From: an uncultured Gammaproteobacteria bacterium
Lineage (GTDB): Bacteria; Patescibacteriota; Microgenomatia; Woykebacterales; RBG-16-39-9b
Length of the DNA: 64,000 nucleotides
NCBI GenBank assembly: GCA_965231125.1
Contig: OZ246414.1
Span: 512,137-576,136, forward strand
Direction of reading: 5' to 3'
The translations under genes and the position numbers were made by a program. Every line of letters begins with the position of its first letter. The first letter of the stretch is position 1. The notes under the pieces are model-generated. The model saw only the letters and a list, made by a program, of their open reading frames with translations, had not been told where the DNA came from and searched no databases. Of this stretch, positions 7,560 to 28,989 are shown in pieces.

Positions 7560-8201
7560 ATGGATGCAAGTGAGCAGCAGGTAAATCAACCGGCCAGTCT
7601 TGGCCGAAAAACAAAGACCCCGGTTGCGGCCTTAGTCGCCTTACTCGTTTTGGTACTTGTGGCCTTTGCTTGGTGGTTTATGTTTCGGGGCGCAAGACAG
7701 GCAAAAGCACCGACTAGTAACTATATGAATCCGACTGCCACTTCCTCCGCAAGTAACTCGGTGACACCAGGCGGAACCAGTAAAACGTATCCGGTGAAAG
7801 TGTATTTTTCAAAACACCCGGATTCGGATAGCGATCCAACCAAAGTCTTCGCTGTGAGCCGAACATCGACGGATGCCGGTGTCGCAAAATTTTCCCTTAG
7901 CGAGCTTATTGCTGGGCCAACGGCAGCCGAAAAAACCCAAGGTTATTACACCCAGCTAACTGTTTCGGGTAGTAGTAGCTGTGCTGGAGACAGTTTTACG
8001 ATATCAATTGTTTCTGGAAAAGCGACCGTAAAATTCTGTAAAGAAACTTCTCTTGGTGGGGAGCTGGATAGTGCTCGTCTTCAGGCGGAAATTGAGACTA
8101 CTATTCAACAATTCTCAACTATCACAAAAGTGGTCGTTCTAAATAAAAACGGGGACTGTATGTTTGATTTATCCGGAATGAATATGTGTCTTTCTAACTA
8201 G
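7560..8201 (+). CDS. Membrane-anchored GerMN-like domain protein (hypothetical)
   Basis: N-terminal TM. Region KVYFSKHPDSD..FAVSRTS..AKFSLSELIAGPTAAEKTQGYYTQL resembles GerMN/LpqB-type domains. Confidence 0.4.
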   Translation: MDASEQQVNQPASLGRKTKTPVAALVALLVLVLVAFAWWFMFRGARQAKAPTSNYMNPTATSSASNSVTPGGTSKTYPVKVYFSKHPDSDSDPTKVFAVSRTSTDAGVAKFSLSELIAGPTAAEKTQGYYTQLTVSGSSSCAGDSFTISIVSGKATVKFCKETSLGGELDSARLQAEIETTIQQFSTITKVVVLNKNGDCMFDLSGMNMCLSN

Positions 8202-8622
8202 AACCTTGGGTTTTATTTTCCTTTACCGCTTTGCCATTATTAATTTCGTAGCCAGCATCTTTAGCTAAGGCTTCCACAACTTCTTTTATATAAGCAATTT
8301 CTTTTTCTGCTTTTACATCGGTCTCATAATCAAGTTCGGCTCGTTGCTCCTCTCTTTCCGCCTGTCGGTTTTGGCTTATCATAACGAATGTAGACAAAAA
8401 TATTGCTTCCAGCGAAACGATTAAAGTAAGAAGACCAAACGGGTAGGGATCAAATCTATGAAGCACCGCAATTAAACCAATGTTAACTAACACCCAAAGG
8501 GCGAACCAAATAGTATGGACGTAGACAAAACGCATACTGCCAACAAAACTTGTGATCGCATCGGATATGTTATCTTCCAGAGCCCTTTTCTTTTCCAGCT
8601 CGTCGTTGAGATTTTTTGCCAT
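8194..8622 (-). CDS. DUF1003-like membrane protein (two TM + C-terminal coiled coil)
   Basis: FVGSMRFVYVHTIWFALWVLVNIGL...DPYPFGLLTLIVSLEAIFLSTFVMISQNRQAEREEQRAEL matches the DUF1003 architecture. Internal Met used as start; ORF-track start is 8685. Confidence 0.5.
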   Translation of the reverse strand: MAKNLNDELEKKRALEDNISDAITSFVGSMRFVYVHTIWFALWVLVNIGLIAVLHRFDPYPFGLLTLIVSLEAIFLSTFVMISQNRQAEREEQRAELDYETDVKAEKEIAYIKEVVEALAKDAGYEINNGKAVKENKTQGSS

Positions 8623-8687
8623 ATTTAACTCAAAAAAAAAATTATACCACTGTTGTGCCCTAAAATGAAAATATGTAATATACACAC

Positions 8688-9413
8688 ATGAAGTTTTTGG
8701 TTTTTCAACACGCTCCCCACGAACATACAGGATTAATTAAAAAATTTGCGGACTCTCGCGGGGTCAGTTTAGATACTGTCGAACTTTGGAAACCGTACAG
8801 GATTCCGACAATCGAAAATTATGACGCCCTTATAATAATGGGCGGGCCGATGGGAGTTTATGAGGGGAAAGACACCTTTCCTTCGAAAGAAGACGAGTTA
8901 AAAACTATAAAAAAGGCCGTCGGAAAAATTCCCATTCTTGGTTTTTGCTTGGGAAGCCAACTTTTGGCAGCGGCGTTAGGGGCGGAAGTTTATCCTAATA
9001 TCCAAAAGGGTAAAAAGATTAAAGAGATAGGTTATTACGAAGTAAATTTAACAGGGCAAGGACTCCAAGATAGATTGTTCAAGGGATTCTCCTCGCCGCT
9101 CTCGGTTTTGCAGTGGCACGGTGATATTTTTGAACTGCCGTCTGGCGTAACTTTATTGGCAACCGGAGAGGTTTGCCCAAACCAAGCCTTTTGTTACAAG
9201 AACGCTTATGGGCTTTTGTTTCATTTCGAATTTACTCCGGAGATGATAGCTAAGCAAATTGAAGTTGATAAAGAATGGATTCACGCTGATTTTGAGTTGG
9301 ATGAAAGCGAATTGCTAAGAAAAGCCACAGAAAACGCGGTTCTAATGGAGCGAGAGTGCCAAAAACTTTTTGACAACTTTCTTTCAATTGTAGAAACACC
9401 GCAAAAGCCTTAA
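8688..9413 (+). CDS. Class I glutamine amidotransferase-like protein
   Basis: ILGFCLGSQLLAAALGAEV nucleophile-elbow motif. GATase1 fold size. Confidence 0.7.
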   Translation: MKFLVFQHAPHEHTGLIKKFADSRGVSLDTVELWKPYRIPTIENYDALIIMGGPMGVYEGKDTFPSKEDELKTIKKAVGKIPILGFCLGSQLLAAALGAEVYPNIQKGKKIKEIGYYEVNLTGQGLQDRLFKGFSSPLSVLQWHGDIFELPSGVTLLATGEVCPNQAFCYKNAYGLLFHFEFTPEMIAKQIEVDKEWIHADFELDESELLRKATENAVLMERECQKLFDNFLSIVETPQKP

Positions 9414-21440: not shown

Positions 21441-22514
21441 ATGTCTAGTCTAAAAAAGAAGAACGTACTTTTAACTGGGTACTTACCGCTAATTTTTGTA
21501 GCATTTTTCCTTTTATTTCCCACAACAGCATTTGCACACGAGCAGTATGTTTTGACAAAACATCAACTTGGCAGTGGATTTGCTGACAAAAGCACAAACG
21601 TTCTAAAGGCTTTAGAAACCCCTGGGAACTTGATAATAGCTCTATTTGTAGGAATCGGAATTTTGAGCGTAGTAGCTTTTTATTTTTTCTTCCAATACTC
21701 AAAACTTGGAAAATTACTTAACCAGAAACTGTATAAACTCGAAAATATTGGGCATTTCTTGATACGAATTTCACTTGCCGTTTCCTTGCTTGCCTCCGCC
21801 TACTTCCACGCCTTCTTAGGTCCAGAGCTTCCAGTTACTAGCATATTTTTAGGTAACTTGCTCATACCAATAATGTATGCCTTAGGATTTTTACTGCTTT
21901 TTGGACTTTTCACCAGAATTACTTCTTTGCTTGGTATTTTAATCCTTGTTGTGGCAACCTTTGTTTATCGGGACTATATGATTACTTATTTTAATTACTA
22001 TGGAGAATACTTAGCTTTAATAATTTTTGGGTCTTATTTTTTATCAATAGACAACAAACTTTTCGGTATCTCAAAATTTATTAGAAAATACAAAGATCTG
22101 GAAATTCTTATTCTCAGAGTAACTTACGGATTATCAGTTATGTACCCTGCTATCACCATCAAACTTTTGCATCCGGCAATAATTGTCGAAATTTATAACC
22201 AGTATCATTTAGATAGGGTTTGGTGGCTTTTCCCGCAAGATGCTTTACTTACTTCGCTGGGAACTGGTTTGGCACAAATCTTGGTTGGAGTGTTTATAAT
22301 TATTGGATTTGAAACACGTCTTGCTGCTTTTGTAACTTTTCTTTTATATTTTGGCTCCGTGGTTTATTTCCAAGAGGCAGTTTGGCCTCATGTAGTTCTG
22401 TTGGCGCTGGCGTTTTACTTTGTTATCAACAATGGAGGGAAATTCACGATTGATAATATAATTGAAAATCGCCTTTTTAATAAGATGAACAAAAAAGAGG
22501 AAAAAGCTCTTTAG
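21441..22514 (+). CDS. Polytopic membrane protein (~9-10 TM) with cleavable-looking signal peptide, hypothetical
   Basis: Signal-like N-terminus (...FPTTAFAHEQ), then many hydrophobic helices. No family recognised. Confidence 0.45.
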   Translation: MSSLKKKNVLLTGYLPLIFVAFFLLFPTTAFAHEQYVLTKHQLGSGFADKSTNVLKALETPGNLIIALFVGIGILSVVAFYFFFQYSKLGKLLNQKLYKLENIGHFLIRISLAVSLLASAYFHAFLGPELPVTSIFLGNLLIPIMYALGFLLLFGLFTRITSLLGILILVVATFVYRDYMITYFNYYGEYLALIIFGSYFLSIDNKLFGISKFIRKYKDLEILILRVTYGLSVMYPAITIKLLHPAIIVEIYNQYHLDRVWWLFPQDALLTSLGTGLAQILVGVFIIIGFETRLAAFVTFLLYFGSVVYFQEAVWPHVVLLALAFYFVINNGGKFTIDNIIENRLFNKMNKKEEKAL

Positions 22515-22855
22515 TAAGGCAATACTTTAGAGAAGATAAAATCTTTAACCAACACCTTTCAACGTGTCCTTACTAACCACCTACATGTAGAGTCCGTCGT
22601 AAAACGTCTAATAAATTACAGTGCTCTAAAAATTCACTAATCCTCAGTGAGACGATATTGCCTCAGATGGAACCAGTTTTTCTTCAAATTTGTGACAGTT
22701 GGAACAAAGCTCCTCGTGAAATCTACACTCGTATCCTTGATGAGCGAAAACCCCGTATTTTGGATGATAAACTAGATCTCCTTTTTTAAAACGACGAACT
22801 TCTTTTTTTGAAAGCATAGATTTGACTGTTCTTAAATCTAACCAAAATGACCTCT

Positions 22856-23542
22856 TTAATTTAGTGAAGACGCTACCGGCAACACGTCGGCAAAAACGAA
22901 GTTATCTCTGGTAACAATTTCTCCAACCTCAATAGAAAGAGGGTGAGAAAACATCGGGCCAGCGTAAACGAACGTGTGAAACTCACCATTTTCTCCGCAG
23001 GCATCGGCTCCTTTCGGCAAGTCGCTTAAAAAGTCTTGATCCCAATCCCTGCCAGCGAAATTTTCTGTCAAGACCCTGGGATCAACGCAGGTCACCACTG
23101 CCCGCAAACCACCATCAAGCATTTCGGTAGCGAGGGCACCTGTCGGTTTACCCCACAGAGGAAAAATTAGTTCCAAGCCAGTACCAGCCATTTTCTTTTC
23201 CCGGTAGCGACGGATATCCTCAAGGAAAAGGTCACCAAAGGCAACGGTTGTAATTCCAGCTTTCTTGGCCTTCTCCAAAGCACTACTTATCGCTTTTTCG
23301 TACTGTTCATTAGTACAAAGGTTCGGTATGGGCACAGACCAGAGTTTTAGGCCGGCTGCCGTTGCTTGAGCTTCTAGCAACTCTCGACGTACCGAATGCA
23401 TAGCAACCCGATCAAATTCCTCGTTTATGGTCGTCAGGAGTCCCACCACCTCAAGACCGGGTTCCTTTCTAAGAGTTGCTAGGCTCCAGGCGCTATCTTT
23501 ACCACTCGACCAAGATAAAAGAACACGTCGTGGGGATTTCAT
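22856..23542 (-). CDS. PP-loop ATP pyrophosphatase, MJ0570/Dph6-like (DUF71) family
   Basis: N-terminal LLSWSSGKDSAWSL PP-loop (SGGKDS-type). 4-nt overlap with the upstream PBP-fold gene. Confidence 0.65.
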   Translation of the reverse strand: MKSPRRVLLSWSSGKDSAWSLATLRKEPGLEVVGLLTTINEEFDRVAMHSVRRELLEAQATAAGLKLWSVPIPNLCTNEQYEKAISSALEKAKKAGITTVAFGDLFLEDIRRYREKKMAGTGLELIFPLWGKPTGALATEMLDGGLRAVVTCVDPRVLTENFAGRDWDQDFLSDLPKGADACGENGEFHTFVYAGPMFSHPLSIEVGEIVTRDNFVFADVLPVASSLN

Positions 23543-24468
23543 AAAGGTAGTGAAACTTTCTCAGGCAATTTTAGAGCTTCAGTTTGATTAGGAGAACCAA
23601 AGACTTCTGGATGGAGAATTTTAGCTAAGATTTCTAGACCTTTATCAATAACACGCGGGCCAGATTGGTTAAAGAAGCTGGGCCCATCTACTATCCAAAC
23701 TTGACCCGTCTGAACTGCTGTGAGAGTATCCCAACCCTGAAATTTTAAACTTCTAATCTCGGCCTTTGTTTTCTCTACGGGAAACCCACAAGGCATCATG
23801 ATAATAATCTCCGGATTTTTGTCGAGTAAAGCCTCCCAAGGAACTTTCCTGGAAGGCCTGCCGGCAATTCCCAAAACTTCTTCTCCGCCAGCCACATCAA
23901 CCATTTCCGGTACCCAGTGACCAGAGGCAAAAAGAGGATCAAGCCACTCCAGACAAAAAACGCGTGGCTTTTCCAAGTGAGAGGTTTGAGATCTGAAATC
24001 CTCAACTTTGGTTCTCAATTTTTCGACTAATTTTTGAGCCTCTACCTTACGTTCCAAAGTTTTCCCAACCCTTAAAATGTCTTCAAGAATTTCCTTAAGG
24101 TTAGTCGGGTTGAGTACTATCAACTCCGGCTTGTTGGGTAGATCGCGAATGACTACGTTAACATCCTCTGGTGTGATTGCACAAACATCACAAAGCATTT
24201 GGGTGATCAAATGAGTTGGTGCCAAGGAGGTTAGTAGTTTTTTATCTAAGGAGTAAAGGCTTGCGTGCTCATGCATCTTTTTTTCAACGTGAGCGTCAAT
24301 TACCCTACTACTAGCGCTACTGTAATCAATATCAGTCGAACTTACACGAGGCTTGATCAAAACTTCTTTGGGATAGATACATTCGTGGGAAACGCCAACT
24401 AATTCCTTAGTTAAACCTAAAGAGCAAACGATTTCTGTCGCTGTTGGCAGAGTGGAAACAATCTTCAT
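23539..24468 (-). CDS. BtuF/FhuD-type (class 8) periplasmic-binding-protein-fold protein; no signal peptide evident
   Basis: Begins KIVSTLPTATEIVCSLGL...LVGVSHEC and continues ...PELIVLNP..., the characteristic start and blocks of cobalamin/siderophore SBPs. Start overlaps the upstream membrane-protein gene by 4 nt. Confidence 0.55.
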   Translation of the reverse strand: MKIVSTLPTATEIVCSLGLTKELVGVSHECIYPKEVLIKPRVSSTDIDYSSASSRVIDAHVEKKMHEHASLYSLDKKLLTSLAPTHLITQMLCDVCAITPEDVNVVIRDLPNKPELIVLNPTNLKEILEDILRVGKTLERKVEAQKLVEKLRTKVEDFRSQTSHLEKPRVFCLEWLDPLFASGHWVPEMVDVAGGEEVLGIAGRPSRKVPWEALLDKNPEIIIMMPCGFPVEKTKAEIRSLKFQGWDTLTAVQTGQVWIVDGPSFFNQSGPRVIDKGLEILAKILHPEVFGSPNQTEALKLPEKVSLPL

Positions 24469-25049
24469 GTAGTTAGAGCTAGGTTTCTATTCTTAGCTAG
24501 CCGTAAAACTAACTCATACGCACCAAAAAAACCTCCGGTGTAGAAGAGGTCGCCAAACAAAGTTCCTTGGAAGAAAGGAATGCCGGCAACATAACTTTCC
24601 CAAAGACCAAACAGGCCTCGGTCGTAGCTGCCAGCAAGCCACACTCCAGCGTTGGTGATTAAAAAGAATTGGACTGAACAAAATAGCGAGGCCGCAATAA
24701 CATTATTTATTGATTTATGCGAACGTAACCAAAGACCAATTAGTCCCGAAATTAAGAAGCTACCATAAACATAGATAATTCCACTGTAAAGGGCCGCTTG
24801 GGGTGGGTAAATGTGACTGAAGTCAATAAACTTTGATCCGAAAGGATGTATGTAAAGAAGTAAGTAGTCAGAGATTAAGAGAGTGGCCAGCGGGAGAACT
24901 AGCGAATAGCGCTTACTTAGATAAGTGCCTCCGAAAAGCCCCATGGCTGTAATCGGTGCAAAATTTGGTATATGAGGAACTAAACGTAATACTACCGCTG
25001 CGAGAACAAAGATAAGTGGGCCGGTGAGTTTTTCTAAAGTTTTTTGCAT
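24465..25049 (-). CDS. Small polytopic membrane protein (194 aa, ~6 TM); candidate ECF-S-component/BtuM-like vitamin transporter
   Basis: Size and topology fit solitary S-components. Translationally coupled into the operon with the PBP-fold gene. Family assignment is inference only. Confidence 0.35.
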   Translation of the reverse strand: MQKTLEKLTGPLIFVLAAVVLRLVPHIPNFAPITAMGLFGGTYLSKRYSLVLPLATLLISDYLLLYIHPFGSKFIDFSHIYPPQAALYSGIIYVYGSFLISGLIGLWLRSHKSINNVIAASLFCSVQFFLITNAGVWLAGSYDRGLFGLWESYVAGIPFFQGTLFGDLFYTGGFFGAYELVLRLAKNRNLALTT

Positions 25050-25057
25050 TTTCCTCC

Positions 25058-26314
25058 TTACCCTACAGTATTTTTTTCAAGTCGACTAGCTACTAATCGC
25101 AAAACTAAACCAGCTTCCAGAGCGATCAAACTAGCCAGCAAAAAATAGTTAATTTTAATTGGTTCGTTTTTATAATCAAGAGTTGGAACTAAAGAATCCA
25201 AACTAGGCGCAATTCCAGTATCTGGTAAAATACTTGCTGCTAAAACTTGACCTTGTTTATTGTTGTTTTGGCTAGTATTAATGCTTTGATTTTGGTTGTC
25301 CTGATTGTTTTGATTCTGGTCTTGATTATTCTGGTCATTACTATTTTGGTTGTCTCCTGGATTTGTAGAGGGTTGCGTGAAAGTTCCAGTAAATTCTCCA
25401 ACCGGAAAAGCCTTTTGTGCAAAAGCATTCAGCGCGTAACCGCTAGTGAAAGTATCCGCTCCAAATCCGGCCTGATATTGCACCCCGCCGCTGGTATCTT
25501 GCAAGCTAACCAAAAAGTTAAGACCGTCTTCCACTTCGCTATCATTGCCTAATACTGCTTGAACTACCCAAGCCGTTGAAGCACCGTCAGTTCCAAAACC
25601 GCTCTGGTACTCCCAACCGCCATTGGTTTGCTGCAAACCCAAGAGGTAGGCAGTACCGGTGTCAATCGCGTCGTCCAGCCCAGTGTTGGAAAAACCCTTG
25701 TCCTGAGCAGCTTTCAATGCTTCAACAGCTACGGCCGTGTCATTAGTATCACTGGCCCCGCTAACTTGAAAGCTCCAACCGTGATCGGCGTTTTGATTGG
25801 CGATCAGAAAATTAACACTGTCGGAAATAATGGTTTGGTTGGCACTCGGTCCGGCAGAAATTAAGGAGAGAATTCCAAAAATATCGTCATTCAAGAGGGT
25901 TGTCGAGCCAATTTGATTGCTGGAAGCGAAGCTTTGCACTTTGGCAACATAATTTCGACCGCCGAAAGTAAACGGGTTTTCGCCGGCAGCAGTAACGGCC
26001 AACAAATCCCTCTCCCAACCGGTAGTTGCAGTATCGATCGGTGGGTTGTTTTTCAGGAAATCGACTAGCGACACACCGCCGTTTTGCACGGTGTGTGGGT
26101 CAATTCCCACGGCCGCTAAACCCATCACCGTCCAACTAGTTTCCCCACCAAAACCGGTTATTTTACCGGTAGCGTCTTGATTAGCCTGCAAATAGGCAAC
26201 CAAGGAACTAATGTTGCTGCTATAATCGGGCACTGCCGCCAAAGCAGAAACAGGCGCTAGTAAAGTGGCAGAAAGCAGGGTTGTAAACAAGGCAGCTTTT
26301 CTTAAAGTAGACAT
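25058..26314 (-). CDS. Sortase-anchored (LPDTG) surface protein with prenyltransferase/squalene-cyclase-like alpha/alpha-barrel repeats; transcobalamin alpha-domain-like
   Basis: Signal peptide. Repeats GFGGETSWTVMGLAAVG, NGGWEYQSGFGTDGASTAWVVQAVLG and SGGVQYQAGFGAD are typical of Prenyltrans repeats. N/Q-rich stalk (NQDQNQNNQDNQNQ). LPDTG, then TM and KN tail. Confidence 0.6.
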   Translation of the reverse strand: MSTLRKAALFTTLLSATLLAPVSALAAVPDYSSNISSLVAYLQANQDATGKITGFGGETSWTVMGLAAVGIDPHTVQNGGVSLVDFLKNNPPIDTATTGWERDLLAVTAAGENPFTFGGRNYVAKVQSFASSNQIGSTTLLNDDIFGILSLISAGPSANQTIISDSVNFLIANQNADHGWSFQVSGASDTNDTAVAVEALKAAQDKGFSNTGLDDAIDTGTAYLLGLQQTNGGWEYQSGFGTDGASTAWVVQAVLGNDSEVEDGLNFLVSLQDTSGGVQYQAGFGADTFTSGYALNAFAQKAFPVGEFTGTFTQPSTNPGDNQNSNDQNNQDQNQNNQDNQNQSINTSQNNNKQGQVLAASILPDTGIAPSLDSLVPTLDYKNEPIKINYFLLASLIALEAGLVLRLVASRLEKNTVG

Positions 26315-26327
26315 AATTTTACCTCCT

Positions 26328-26948
26328 TTATGTCGTTTTCCAAGTAATAATATTGTCTGGGCTCAAAGTATCCAAGGAAACACCCTTACCTTTCCCTGGT
26401 ACATCTTTCCCATCTTTATCTTTCACGGTATAAGTCCAGCACTCACAGTTGTGCCCATGGAGCTCGGTGATGTAGTAACTATTCAAGGGCGCACCGTACC
26501 AGCGGGCAACGAGCGAAAATTTATTCTCACTACTAGCCTTAACTAAGACATCATAAACCGTCATCCCAGCCGACCAGCTAACTTGATAAGGGTAATTGCC
26601 CGACCCAGTGTTGATGTTGAGAGTAACTGTTTGTTCAACTGGAGCCGGTGCGGTTGGAGTGGGATTTGAATTAGCCGAATTTTTATTGGAAGTTTGTTTT
26701 TGAGTTGTTTGGTAGGTAGTAGTTCCCTGAACTTGGTTTTTGGTAGTGGGTGGAGTAATAGTTTGTTGGTCGGCAGTGCTAGTCTCCTGAGTTTTGTTGC
26801 TAGTTGTAACTGTACTGCCTTGCGGTTTTGGTTCAGCCTTTTTCTCACTACCCAAAAACTTCGGTGTCGCAATTACCAAACCAATTACTAAAAGGGTTGG
26901 AATTAAGATTAAGTTTTTCTGCACAATGTTTTTTACTTTAGAAAACAT
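26328..26948 (-). CDS. Membrane-anchored DUF4430-like (intrinsic-factor/transcobalamin beta-domain-like) protein
   Basis: N-terminal TM. T/Q-rich stalk. C-terminal ~95 aa TVTLNINTG..GMTVYDVLVKAS...GAPLNSYYITEL..CWTYTVKDKDG..VSLDTLSPDNIITWKT fits the DUF4430 pattern (G.tv.d.L...W.y.vNg......L.dGD.I.W). Second Met used as start (GAGAAGG SD); ORF-track start is 26972. Confidence 0.5.
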   Translation of the reverse strand: MFSKVKNIVQKNLILIPTLLVIGLVIATPKFLGSEKKAEPKPQGSTVTTSNKTQETSTADQQTITPPTTKNQVQGTTTYQTTQKQTSNKNSANSNPTPTAPAPVEQTVTLNINTGSGNYPYQVSWSAGMTVYDVLVKASSENKFSLVARWYGAPLNSYYITELHGHNCECWTYTVKDKDGKDVPGKGKGVSLDTLSPDNIITWKTT

Positions 26949-26989
26949 AAAAGCCTTCTCTACTCGAGGCAAAGGAGGCTATCAAAAAA

Positions 26990-27145
26990 CCTTCTCGAGC
27001 TACAAGAAGGTTTAAAAGATTGATATGACAATCCTTGCTCGAGGAACTTACAAAGGCTTGGGTTCTGGGTTTACAGTAGCGGCACTCCCCTGGAATTGCA
27101 CCAGGATTCACTTAAACACCTTTGCTCTAAATTGTTAAAGTACTA
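26990..27145 (-). ncRNA. Cobalamin-riboswitch-like 5' leader (partial core) with intrinsic terminator
   Basis: Minus-strand RNA GUGAAUCCUGGUGCAAUUCCAGGGGAGUGCCGCUACUGUAAAC aligns block-for-block with the btuB-type core GGGAAUCCAGUGCGAAUCUGGAGCUGACGCGCAGCGGUAAGG. Followed by hairpin AAACCUUCU-N9-AGAAGGUUU plus UUUUUU. A canonical B12 box was not found. Confidence 0.4.
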
Positions 27146-27147
27146 CG

Positions 27148-27176
27148 ATTTTAATCGTGTATATCAAAACTGTCAA
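27148..27176 (-). promoter_or_regulatory. Sigma70-like promoter (TTGACA-17-TAAAAT) for the minus-strand B12-like operon
   Basis: On the minus strand: TTGACAgttttgatatacacgatTAAAAT, about 200 nt upstream of the DUF4430-like gene ATG. Confidence 0.45.
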
Positions 27177-27303
27177 TACCCTTTTATGTAAACTAATAGT
27201 AGAATTACCAATATCGCTCTTCTTGACACTGATAGTTTGTTGGACGGTTTGAGGAACCTCTACCTTTCTTGACCTCAACTACAATCCGTTTATAATTTAG
27301 TTA

Positions 27304-28092
27304 ATGTCGCTTTCTATTTTTAAAAAATTGGCTGCTAAGGACATAATTCTAGCCACTCTGCTAATACTTCTAATTCCCAGTGCGTTATTCGTAGGTTGGG
27401 AAAAAGTAATTCTTCAAACAGTTATTTGTGCCTTTGTAACCATCTCTTTGGATCTTGGAATAAACTTTCTAAAAAAGACTAAATATTTCTTTCCAAAGGC
27501 TGGGTTAATCACTGGGCTGATAGTAGCCCTGGTACTCCCTATCGGCGTGAATCCATTGATCGCCGCTTTTGCTGCTCTGGTGGCAATTTTTAGCAAGCAA
27601 TTTATAAAGATAGGCCGTAATCATATTTTTAATCCCGCTACCTTTGGGTTGGTGGTTGCTGCTGTCTTGTTTAAAATTCCCCTTGGTTGGTGGGGGGACA
27701 ATCTAATCTGGCTAACGATCCCTTTGGGAATGCTAGCAGTGCTGCGAGCAAGAAAAGAGCTACAAGTAATCGGTTTTGTCGCCACCTACGTTTTGATTGA
27801 GTATCTGTTCATCAAGCTCTATATTCCAAACGACATCACTGCTTTGAAGACAGCCTTTGAGACCAATTCCTGGTTCTTTGCTCTTTTCATGGTGCCAGAG
27901 CCGATGACTTCTCTGCTTCCGTATCGACTCAGCCCTATTTTCGGTTTTATTGCAGCCTCTGCTGGGATTAATTTATCTTTAATTAAATTTACTCCCATTT
28001 CAAACAACTCGCTTTTACTTGGGCTTTTGGTTGCCAATGCTGTTGCTTTTATTTACCTTTTTCTTCAACGCAGAGAAGCTAAAGGACACTAA
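27304..28092 (+). CDS. RnfD/NqrB-family-like polytopic membrane protein (orphan, 262 aa)
   Basis: GRNHIFNPATFGLVVAAVLF matches the (G)RxxFNPA(l) signature of NQR2/RnfD/RnfE proteins. Multiple TM helices. Shorter than canonical RnfD. Confidence 0.4.
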   Translation: MSLSIFKKLAAKDIILATLLILLIPSALFVGWEKVILQTVICAFVTISLDLGINFLKKTKYFFPKAGLITGLIVALVLPIGVNPLIAAFAALVAIFSKQFIKIGRNHIFNPATFGLVVAAVLFKIPLGWWGDNLIWLTIPLGMLAVLRARKELQVIGFVATYVLIEYLFIKLYIPNDITALKTAFETNSWFFALFMVPEPMTSLLPYRLSPIFGFIAASAGINLSLIKFTPISNNSLLLGLLVANAVAFIYLFLQRREAKGH

Positions 28093-28744
28093 TGGTTCCG
28101 GTTATCGAAGGCCTTGTATGATCGTGCCAACCCCAGTTGCCTTTATTGTCAAACCTAAATGACCAACTACTTCCAGGACTAATCCCTCCAGAATCAAACC
28201 CAGGGTAGTCGGTATGTATAGGATGAGGATTACTCGCCGGCCAGCGAGTTTGGCTATCGTTATTCACCCACTTGATCGTATCCCCGCTATTGATGGTTAG
28301 GTTTAAGGCGGAATAAACCGCACCACTACTAATGGTCACGGTTACTGTTTTAGGAGAAGTCGAAGGTGGTGGGCTCGAAGGTGGAGGTGTGGTTGGGGGT
28401 TGGCTGGTGGGAGGAGTGCTGGTTGGTGACTCTTCGTTGTTGGTGCTGTCGGGGCTTGTAGAAGTTGAATTAGTAGAATCTTTTTTAGCCTCGCCACCTT
28501 CCTCTAAAGGCGGTGTGTTTTTATCTATTTTATTTATTTTTTCTTTTAATTGGAAAATTTCCTTGTTTTGTTGCCGAGAGGAATTCTCCGACTTTAGTTT
28601 CAGAGTGTAGTTTGCGACAGTAGCGGCTAAGAGAATAAAAACAACAAATATTAGAAGAGATATTTTGTAAGAAATTTTTCTAAACAAAAAAGCCATTAGC
28701 TCTATTTTAGAATGCTTATAGAAAGTCCGCAACCAAAAGTTCAA
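28079..28744 (-). CDS. Membrane-anchored cupredoxin-like domain protein with Pro/Ser/Thr-rich linker
   Basis: N-terminal TM. TPPTSQPPTTPPPSSPPPSTSPKT stalk. C-terminal ~95 aa TVTISSGAVYSALNLTINSGDTIKWVNND...HPHPIHTD...WGWHDHTRPSITGTISV, cupredoxin-like, no Cys ligand. Confidence 0.45.
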   Translation of the reverse strand: MNFWLRTFYKHSKIELMAFLFRKISYKISLLIFVVFILLAATVANYTLKLKSENSSRQQNKEIFQLKEKINKIDKNTPPLEEGGEAKKDSTNSTSTSPDSTNNEESPTSTPPTSQPPTTPPPSSPPPSTSPKTVTVTISSGAVYSALNLTINSGDTIKWVNNDSQTRWPASNPHPIHTDYPGFDSGGISPGSSWSFRFDNKGNWGWHDHTRPSITGTISVL

Positions 28745-28912: not shown

Positions 28913-28989
28913 TGGTGACCCCGGGGGGATTCGAACCCCCGATCTTCGGGATGAAAACCCGATATCCTAGACCACTAGACGACGGGGCC
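28913..28989 (-). tRNA. tRNA-Glu (anticodon UUC), CCA encoded
   Basis: GGCCCCGUCGUCUAGUGGUCUAGGAUAUCGGGUUUUCAUCCCGAAGAUCGGGGGUUCGAAUCCCCCCGGGGUCACCA. Cloverleaf with 7-bp acceptor, anticodon loop UUUUCAU and GGTTCGAAUCC T-loop. Confidence 0.85.

Follow-up and report, generated by a model that had tools for sequence, protein, structure and literature searches.

A cobalamin-riboswitch-controlled operon predicted to capture and import corrinoids in Candidatus Woykebacteria, and DUF6580 as a candidate B12 transporter family

Bacterial surface proteins that join an alpha/alpha toroid to an SLBB (DUF4430) domain were predicted to be scavengers of cobalamin (vitamin B12) by Burroughs, Balaji, Iyer and Aravind (2007; PMC1796856). 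The Lsa1836-1840 locus of L. sakei encodes an energy-coupling factor (ECF) transporter together with two separate secreted proteins, the transcobalamin alpha-like Lsa1840 and the beta-like Lsa1839, and is linked to heme uptake (bioRxiv 10.1101/864751). The passage of B12 across the cytoplasmic membrane is unexplained for most B12-dependent prokaryotes; BtuM is a solitary S-component-type B12 transporter of proteobacteria with an essential cobalt-ligating Cys80 in loop 3 (Rempel et al. 2018; PMC6072759; PDB 8ovv). Among PP-loop enzymes, the DUF71-B12 subgroup carries ENGEF/YH in place of the EGGE/DxE of Dph6, along with the PP-loop SGGKDS; 75 of 102 members adjoin B12 transporter genes, and a CbiZ-like role feeding CbiB has been proposed as a hypothesis only (de Crecy-Lagard et al. 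2012; PMC3541065). Here we analyze a stretch of 64,000 nucleotides (the window, to which coordinates refer unless a related locus is named) in which a five-gene minus-strand operon, A to E, is most likely a cobalamin-riboswitch-controlled corrinoid capture and import system of Candidatus Woykebacteria (Patescibacteria; candidate phyla radiation, CPR). An earlier, sequence-only reading of this DNA had proposed a dedicated corrinoid uptake operon, and that proposal is now supported by a riboswitch in the leader, by the adjacency of sister operons to a class II ribonucleotide reductase (RNR; NrdJ), by fusions of toroid and DUF4430 domains, and by the BtuM-like fold of protein C. The class II RNR, encoded elsewhere in the genome, is the known B12 consumer of the host.

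The region 22856-26972 contains five co-directional, closely packed open reading frames (ORFs) on the minus strand, all at the coordinates and with the short junctions given by the sequence-only reading. Gene A starts either at a TTG (26328-26972, 214 aa) or at an ATG (26328-26948, 206 aa). The ATG form is identical to database protein P0001, and a GAGAAGG ribosome-binding site lies 6 nt 5' of the ATG at 26948. Genes B (25058-26314, 418 aa), C (24465-25049, 194 aa), D (23539-24468, 309 aa) and E (22856-23542, 228 aa) follow. Gaps of 13 nt and 8 nt separate A from B and B from C, while C overlaps D, and D overlaps E, by 4 nt. The operon is taken to end with gene E since the gene that comes next runs in the opposite, convergent direction. 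Proteins A, B and C are located on a 915,171-bp NCBI contig, and the sole relatives of protein A among database protein matches come from Candidatus Woykebacteria. No NrdJ or PduO gene occurs in the window.

The leader (26973-27180, minus strand) lay within the span of the earlier reading but drew no comment there; it contains a promoter-like site, a cobalamin aptamer and a terminator. Its 5' sequence is GGUG...GUGAAUCCUGGUGCAAUUCCAGGGGAGUGCCGCUACUGUAAACCCAGAACC. The site TTGACA-17-TAAAAT (27148-27176) matches the sigma-70 type at 11 of 12 positions, is the best such match within 22400-27400, and stands about 20 nt upstream of the aptamer, which makes it the putative operon promoter. A cobalamin aptamer of the short AdoCbl-II type (RF01689) occupies 27047-27127, as judged by an Rfam match and by covariation in relatives. 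In a local Rfam scan of 501 nt, the match spanned 27051-27124 with 29.1 bits (E 8.9e-5). Next comes a conserved box, UUCCUCGAGCAAGG (CUCGAGCAAGG; 27033-27046), a probable kissing-loop or anti-terminator element, which is kept as CUUCGAGCAAAGG in all four Woykebacteria leaders and in L002 matches the 3' hairpin of Rfam RF01482. An intrinsic terminator (26984-27013) appears in the minimum free energy fold, with an 11-bp stem, AAACCUUCUUG/CGAGAAGGUUU, and a U tract. It is conserved in three other Woykebacteria contigs (L001-L003). The CUCGAGC of the box is complementary to the terminator 3' arm (GCUCGAG) and so may serve as an anti-terminator, which ligand binding would sequester. The leader is thus predicted to hold a cobalamin riboswitch with a terminator.

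The same aptamer was found just 5' of gene A in L001-L003, at 33.6-47.6 bits. Elements at the matching position exceed the Rfam cut-off in L004 (39.3 bits), L033 (38.4), L031 (39.1) and L027 (40.4), and likewise in L048. We built our own covariance model from five aptamer copies, using the three reliable hairpins only. It gave 61 matches in 1.08 Mb of related loci, 58 of them on the strand of the DUF6580 gene or operon (DUF6580 is the family of protein C) and about 30 within 160 nt upstream of the start of a DUF4430 gene. Across 59 distinct aptamer sequences, 96.4% of cells were paired and double changes occurred at 8 of 11 pairs; the covariation score was 0.60, compared to 0.14 after shuffling and no more than 0.105 in slid controls, in an alignment that was fitted to the model and so favors the structure. 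The core GUGCCGCUACUGUAA is conserved, and the stems read CCUGG/CCAGG, GUCUG/CAGAC or GGCCG/CGGCC. A structure obtained with RNAalifold from five aptamers was discarded as inconsistent with the Rfam architecture, since MAFFT had misaligned the P1 stem. The survey for cobalamin riboswitches that the earlier reading had suggested as a check found them both in the window's leader and in dozens of DUF6580 loci.

Beyond the terminator, a second hairpin is present in the leaders of the window (26950-26982, minus strand) and of L001-L003. In it, the ribosome-binding site (AGGAGG in L002 and L003, GAGAAGG in the window) is paired with a stretch of the CCUCCU type. This hairpin suggests additional translational control.

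The related loci connect the operon to its B12 consumer. In L001, L002, L003, L015 and L033, NrdR and a class II RNR, recognized by Ribonuc_red_lgN/lgC and TSCPD, immediately precede an A-B-C(-DUF4342)(-D) operon. The sister Woykebacteria operons have no E and sometimes no D, as in L002. The genome of the window also holds a second, smaller B12 uptake locus outside the window (L004 5332-6836, and L005), in the place where relatives keep A-B-C. Its order in L004 is NrdR-NrdJ-riboswitch-DUF4430 (150 aa)-DUF6580 (P0045, 60% identical to C)-DUF4342. Due to the position of this second locus, the five-gene operon looks like a relocated or extra copy. The DUF4342 gene (about 80 aa) after DUF6580 is seen at L001 9513-9755, L004 6597-6836, L015 7554-7832 and L027 7577-7846 and is absent from the window operon. 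At L004 2400-5306, two ORFs (212 and 658 aa) were called for the class II RNR, with an HNH endonuclease gene after them, and the same region in L005 is a single 867-aa ORF; possible reasons are a frameshift, a difference between assemblies or a mobile element.

Proteins A and B appear to form the surface part of the system. Protein B was originally described as a squalene-cyclase-type toroid with a signal peptide, an N/Q-rich stalk and an LPDTG motif, and each of these features was recovered. Pfam assigns SQHop_cyclase_C (5e-8), a squalene-cyclase/prenyltransferase-type toroid, and the protein reads as a Sec signal peptide (...SALA/AVP), the toroid, an N/Q-rich linker, LPDTG, and a C-terminal transmembrane helix (390-414) with a basic RLEK tail. 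In the AlphaFold2 model, the toroid (residues 31-310) has a predicted local distance difference test score (pLDDT) of about 97 and the stalk is disordered. LPDTG or LPNTG is present in all four Woykebacteria B homologues, although in B the 24-residue spacer is unusually long; no TLxTC sortase ORF occurs in the window. The more distant homologues of B (P0163-P0178, 34-43% identity) are single proteins with an N-terminal toroid and a C-terminal DUF4430 domain, the same order as in transcobalamin. These fusions are the reason for reading A and B as partners, and they lend indirect support to the idea that A and B jointly enclose a corrinoid. Protein B does not belong to Pfam Cobalamin_bind. A different natural fusion, P0182 (660 aa, on a 1.25-Mb contig), joins a B-type alpha/alpha toroid to a Peripla_BP_2 (BtuF-like) domain and may be another way of coupling a toroid to a corrinoid binding protein.

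Protein A (26328-26948 in its ATG form) has an N-terminal hydrophobic anchor or signal, a T/Q/P-rich stalk and a C-terminal domain of about 100 residues that we assign to a divergent DUF4430 (SLBB) of the transcobalamin beta-domain type. The assignment is made through relatives. The sister protein P0010, 43% identical to A over its full length (E 1e-29), scores 35.9 bits against DUF4430, above the cut-off of 23.8. An exhaustive hmmsearch of 1.84 billion representative proteins with an A-family profile returned 91 matches, and 80 of the 88 that were scanned are DUF4430 (PF14478). The motif W.Y.V...G.S...GD.I.W is common to A and its DUF4430 relatives in the alignment. The top PDB profile match of A is the beta domain of transcobalamin-2, at only E 1.1, which is not significant.

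Protein C, the 194-aa protein for which six transmembrane helices had been predicted, is a member of DUF6580 (PF20221; 166.1 bits against a gathering threshold of 27, E 1e-48). Its model shows the six-helix architecture of ECF S-components, and the best solved structural match is BtuM; the DUF6580 model has a pLDDT of 91.3. PDB sequence searches with protein C or DUF6580 gave no match to BtuM. A sequence-profile search of the PDB with DUF6580 reached only CbrT (E 0.041), through a helix-1/loop-1 motif. Invariant residues of the family include R22, H26, N29, P32 and D167 (alignment A4). DUF6580 relatives were found in at least 557 species genomes in a genome scan, spread over many Patescibacteria lineages, Chloroflexota, Ignavibacteria, Bacteroidota and some archaea.

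Gene neighbors were counted in the best 80 DUF6580 loci. A DUF4430 gene is present in 53, a B-type toroid in 17, NrdJ in 28, NrdR in 27 and a PduO-type adenosyltransferase in 18, and no ABC (ATP-binding cassette) ATPase ORF was detected within 7 kb in any of them. In four Ignavibacteria genomes, RF00174 riboswitches (88-103 bits) head operons that combine DUF6580 with BtuB-like receptors. The arrangements behind the riboswitch are TonB receptor-E-D-DUF6580 in L052, E-TonB receptor-DUF6580 in L057 and TonB receptor-DUF6580-MetH in L055. DUF6580 also stands behind BtuB-like receptors in diderm Bacteroidota. Taken together, the riboswitch regulation, the gene neighbors and the fold make DUF6580 a candidate new B12 transporter family, with protein C as a candidate corrinoid transporter. 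Our literature search found no mention of DUF6580, and none of CPR together with cobalamin, RNR and riboswitch.

Protein D has the class-8 binding-protein fold of BtuF and no signal peptide, as had been noticed from the sequence. It matches Pfam Peripla_BP_2 (1e-17), and among PDB entries it matches Vibrio BtuF best (2.7e-12); against the NCBIfam BtuF equivalog it scores 34 bits, compared to a cut-off of 234. The lack of a signal peptide follows from an ORF that is not extendable upstream and from the alignment of D residue 2 with residue 22 of Vibrio BtuF. It is a property of the family, which is large (at least 598 metagenome matches): in all of the best 80, the match begins at residue 1-2, and 68 of 79 have 20 or fewer upstream codons. 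The family is Cys-rich and carries HEC and CxxC motifs. The CxxC is found in all 80 and lies outside the search pattern. Order C-D-E recurs in L106, and L127 has RF00174 riboswitch-TonB receptor-C-E-D. In L120 (5562-11843), an RF00174 riboswitch is followed by D and CobQ/CbiP, and a second strong cobalamin riboswitch by a TonB receptor and a classical, exported BtuF. L120 shows that two BtuF-like types coexist, presumably with different roles. We considered whether D is an ordinary substrate-binding protein and rejected this, given the missing signal peptide and the coexistence with a classical BtuF.

Protein E is a PP-loop ATP pyrophosphatase (Diphthami_syn_2, 9e-27), as the initial Dph6-like call implied. 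It reads ...WSSGKDSAW... and ...ACGENGEFHTF..., and the solved Dph6-type protein PF0828 has GEGGEFET at the position aligned with the latter. The motif (SSGKDS ... GENGEFHT) and the clustering with B12 transport genes place E in the DUF71-B12 subgroup, as judged from sequence and context; E-like genes occur with DUF6580 in the RF00174 operons of L052, L057 and L127. The novel downstream handling step that the earlier reading inferred in part from the PP-loop ATPase is not a new link to B12, since ENGEFH marks a known association of unsolved chemistry (PMC3541065).

From these observations we propose the following mechanism. When B12 is scarce, the aptamer would be empty, the CUCGAGC box would pair with the 3' arm of the terminator and transcription would read through; when B12 is bound, the terminator would form. 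Protein A, whose DUF4430/SLBB domain sits on a stalk tethered to the membrane, and protein B, a secreted toroid on a stalk with an LPDTG and transmembrane tail, would clamp a corrinoid at the cell surface, mirroring the two domains of transcobalamin and intrinsic factor. The pair would hand the corrinoid to C for passage across the membrane. C would probably act as a solitary carrier in the manner of BtuM, given that it has no linked ABC or ECF genes. D and E are accessory to A-B-C. D may be a cytoplasmic corrinoid acceptor that takes the ligand with its conserved His/Cys motifs, thereby making import directional, and presents it to E. E could be a corrinoid-modifying or repair enzyme, possibly one that performs ATP-dependent (re)amidation or remodeling. 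Adenosylation and use of the cofactor by NrdJ would follow.

A broader version of this proposal, which we offer only tentatively and regard as rather doubtful, is that DUF6580, the cytoplasmic Cys-rich BtuF-like protein and DUF71-B12 form an ABC-independent pathway of B12 import and processing in both CPR and diderm Ignavibacteria. The carrier would work without an ECF module, D would ligate cobalt via His/Cys to give directionality, and E would use ATP to repair or modify corrinoids, for example by re-amidation. The D-CobQ pair of L120 would then be a parallel to re-amidation by E.

Several results weigh against the B12 reading of the operon. The window aptamer scores below the Rfam gathering cut-off (29.1 versus 36.5 bits) and, for this reason, was not reported by a whole-window scan in gathering mode. 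Pfam DUF4430 (PF14478) does not match protein A or its isolated C-terminal domain even at E<=10, so that the original claim of a DUF4430-type domain in A fails with Pfam itself and stands only through P0010 and the A-family profile. In addition, when the A family was compared by hhalign to the fused toroid-DUF4430 proteins, the alignment covered the last 16 residues only, at 0.8% probability; the assignment rests on the exhaustive HMMER search rather than on hhalign. The toroid of B appears closer to terpene cyclases than to transcobalamin, and the related split pair of L. sakei has been proposed for heme uptake (bioRxiv 10.1101/864751). Alignment A4 has no Cys among its invariant or near-invariant columns, which leaves the cobalt-ligating Cys of BtuM without a conserved counterpart. 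D and E each occur in only 2 of the 80 DUF6580 loci, and most D-family genes lie in unrelated-looking neighborhoods without a riboswitch, C or E.

Some of these points lead to other explanations. One is that DUF6580 serves as substrate-specific S-component to a shared ECF module of group II, EcfAA'T, whose genes lie elsewhere in the genome, so that uptake of the same substrate would be driven by ATP hydrolysis. The S-component fold of C agrees with this, as does the fact that its only sequence-level relative in the PDB, CbrT, is an ECF S-component. Group II S-component genes are typically unlinked to their ECF module, and Patescibacteria, like most organisms with ECF transporters, are monoderm-like. 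However, none of the 80 DUF6580 loci has an ABC ATPase ORF, and helix 1 in alignment A4 has no conserved AxxxA, the motif that mediates contact with EcfT. Furthermore, in the diderm Ignavibacteria and Bacteroidota DUF6580 stands behind BtuB-like receptors, a niche that belongs to the ECF-independent BtuM (PMC6072759). We consider a shared module possible but unlikely. It is improbable that A-B-C alone is the uptake system and that D and E are recently joined passengers with no part in handling B12. The scarcity of D and E beside DUF6580, the sister operons that do without E or (L002) D, and the many D loci without C, E or a riboswitch would fit such a history, but the 4-nt overlaps at C/D and D/E imply translational coupling, and C, D and E recur together in distant lineages (behind RF00174 in L052 and L127, and also in L106). 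D also stands directly behind a riboswitch and beside CobQ in L120, and DUF71-B12 genes are known neighbors of B12 transporters.

The nature of the ligand and the activity of B were weighed in the same way. The surface pair and transporter could take up heme or another tetrapyrrole as in L. sakei, where a split pair with an ECF transporter has been linked to heme uptake experimentally (bioRxiv 10.1101/864751), and the toroid fold is not ligand-specific. Set against this are the cobalamin riboswitches that immediately precede the genes here and in dozens of related loci, the adjacency of the system in related loci to B12-dependent NrdJ, MetH and the PduO adenosyltransferase, and the placement of E in the B12-linked DUF71 subgroup. 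We think uptake of heme or another tetrapyrrole is very improbable. Least credible to us is that B works on envelope lipids as an active terpene cyclase or prenyltransferase, in an operon not concerned with ligand capture. The best sequence and structure matches of the toroid are class II terpene cyclases, but the Sec signal peptide, stalk and LPDTG tail place B outside the cell. The central Asp of DxDD is the general acid of terpene cyclases. In B, the DxDDTA of these enzymes is replaced by SDTNDTA, which changes this Asp to Asn, and it is likewise not conserved in the fused homologues. These homologues are joined to DUF4430, and the operon is under predicted riboswitch control. An active cyclase was rejected on the grounds that B is exported, has lost the general acid and has homologues fused to DUF4430. 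A corrinoid capture and import system is the reading that we retain.

The surroundings of the operon and of its relatives provided further observations. A 57-codon ORF (22643-22816, minus strand) lies 40 nt past the gene E stop and encodes MLSKKEVRRFKKGDLVYHPKYGVFAHQGYECRFHEELCSNCHKFEEKLVPSEAISSH, with a Cys/His knuckle; tblastn of the related loci found a counterpart in none. Divergent from the operon, a gene (27304-28092, plus strand) with a strong promoter-like site of its own, TTGACC-16-TATAAT (27269-27296), encodes a 262-aa membrane protein that weakly matches RnfD/NQR2. It is followed by a gene for a secreted, P/S/T-rich protein whose C-terminus faintly resembles plastocyanin (28079-28744, minus strand) and by a tRNA gene (28916-28989, minus strand). 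No link between these last three genes and the operon was apparent. In many CPR loci, a second AdoCbl-II riboswitch is found just after the PduO adenosyltransferase gene: at L035 8157-8234 (downstream gene 8306-9391) and L054 8031-8107 (downstream gene 8104-9231), in both cases above the Rfam cut-off, and also in L017, L021, L037, L053, L056 and L064. The conserved, cytoplasmic protein encoded behind it has 361-375 aa and a C-terminal CxxC...CxxC knuckle, is 43% identical between L035 and L054, and has no Pfam match. It appears to represent a B12-regulated family without a Pfam assignment.

If the proposed function is correct, DUF6580 is a candidate transporter family for the gap in the membrane passage of B12, based on its regulation, neighbors and fold. 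The operon would explain how the class II RNR of ultra-small CPR bacteria is supplied with its cofactor, and it would make DNA synthesis in these organisms dependent on B12 derived from the community. The large cytoplasmic BtuF-like family with its conserved cysteines is a possible bacterial intracellular B12 chaperone. The published CbiZ-like role of DUF71-B12 presumes a cobamide remodeling pathway. A CPR genome of 0.9 Mb would be unlikely to encode one, and the presence of E in this genome would then leave fewer options for the role of the enzyme.

The literature already describes both the split transcobalamin-like pair and the link between PP-loop enzymes and B12. What this operon adds is a B12 transporter candidate, DUF6580, that has no linked ECF genes, a Cys-rich BtuF-like partner that lacks a signal peptide, and a CPR setting in which a class II RNR would be fed. 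The operon thus most likely points to a candidate new transporter and not to a wholly new kind of system. The proteins described in PMC1796856 are secreted or wall-anchored toroid and SLBB proteins from organisms without B12 synthesis, often with a second SLBB protein in the operon, and their fusion is exactly the architecture of the homologues of B. In our case, the two parts are separate polypeptides in a CPR host, protein A is too divergent for the Pfam model, and the membrane partner is DUF6580 instead of CbiO/CbiQ-type ECF genes. Human transcobalamin, intrinsic factor and haptocorrin are single polypeptides, and similarity to them is not significant. L. sakei has the same split alpha/beta pair beside an S-component-type membrane protein. 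It differs in having EcfAA'T genes and in its assignment to heme uptake, whereas the present operon has no ATPase genes and adds a cobalamin riboswitch, a cytoplasmic BtuF-like protein and a DUF71-B12 enzyme. D shares the class-8 fold of BtuF from the BtuCDF importer but has conserved HEC and CxxC motifs and no signal peptide, and the operon has no BtuCD genes. E agrees with the DUF71-B12/Dph6/MJ0570 proteins of PMC3541065 in its ENGEFH and in adjoining B12 transport genes. CbrT (Santos et al. 2018; PMC5997447; PDB 6fnp) shares the helix-1/loop-1 motif, RL.PH.PNFAPIT in DUF6580 and RIFKIIDIPNVQPVT in CbrT, but belongs to PF12822 and works with a dedicated ECF module. Compared to BtuM, C belongs to a different Pfam family, has no detectable sequence similarity and has no conserved counterpart of Cys80, and in monoderm CPR bacteria DUF6580 is paired with surface DUF4430 binders. 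The riboswitch-headed operons of Ignavibacteria are the same type of evidence that first identified BtuM.

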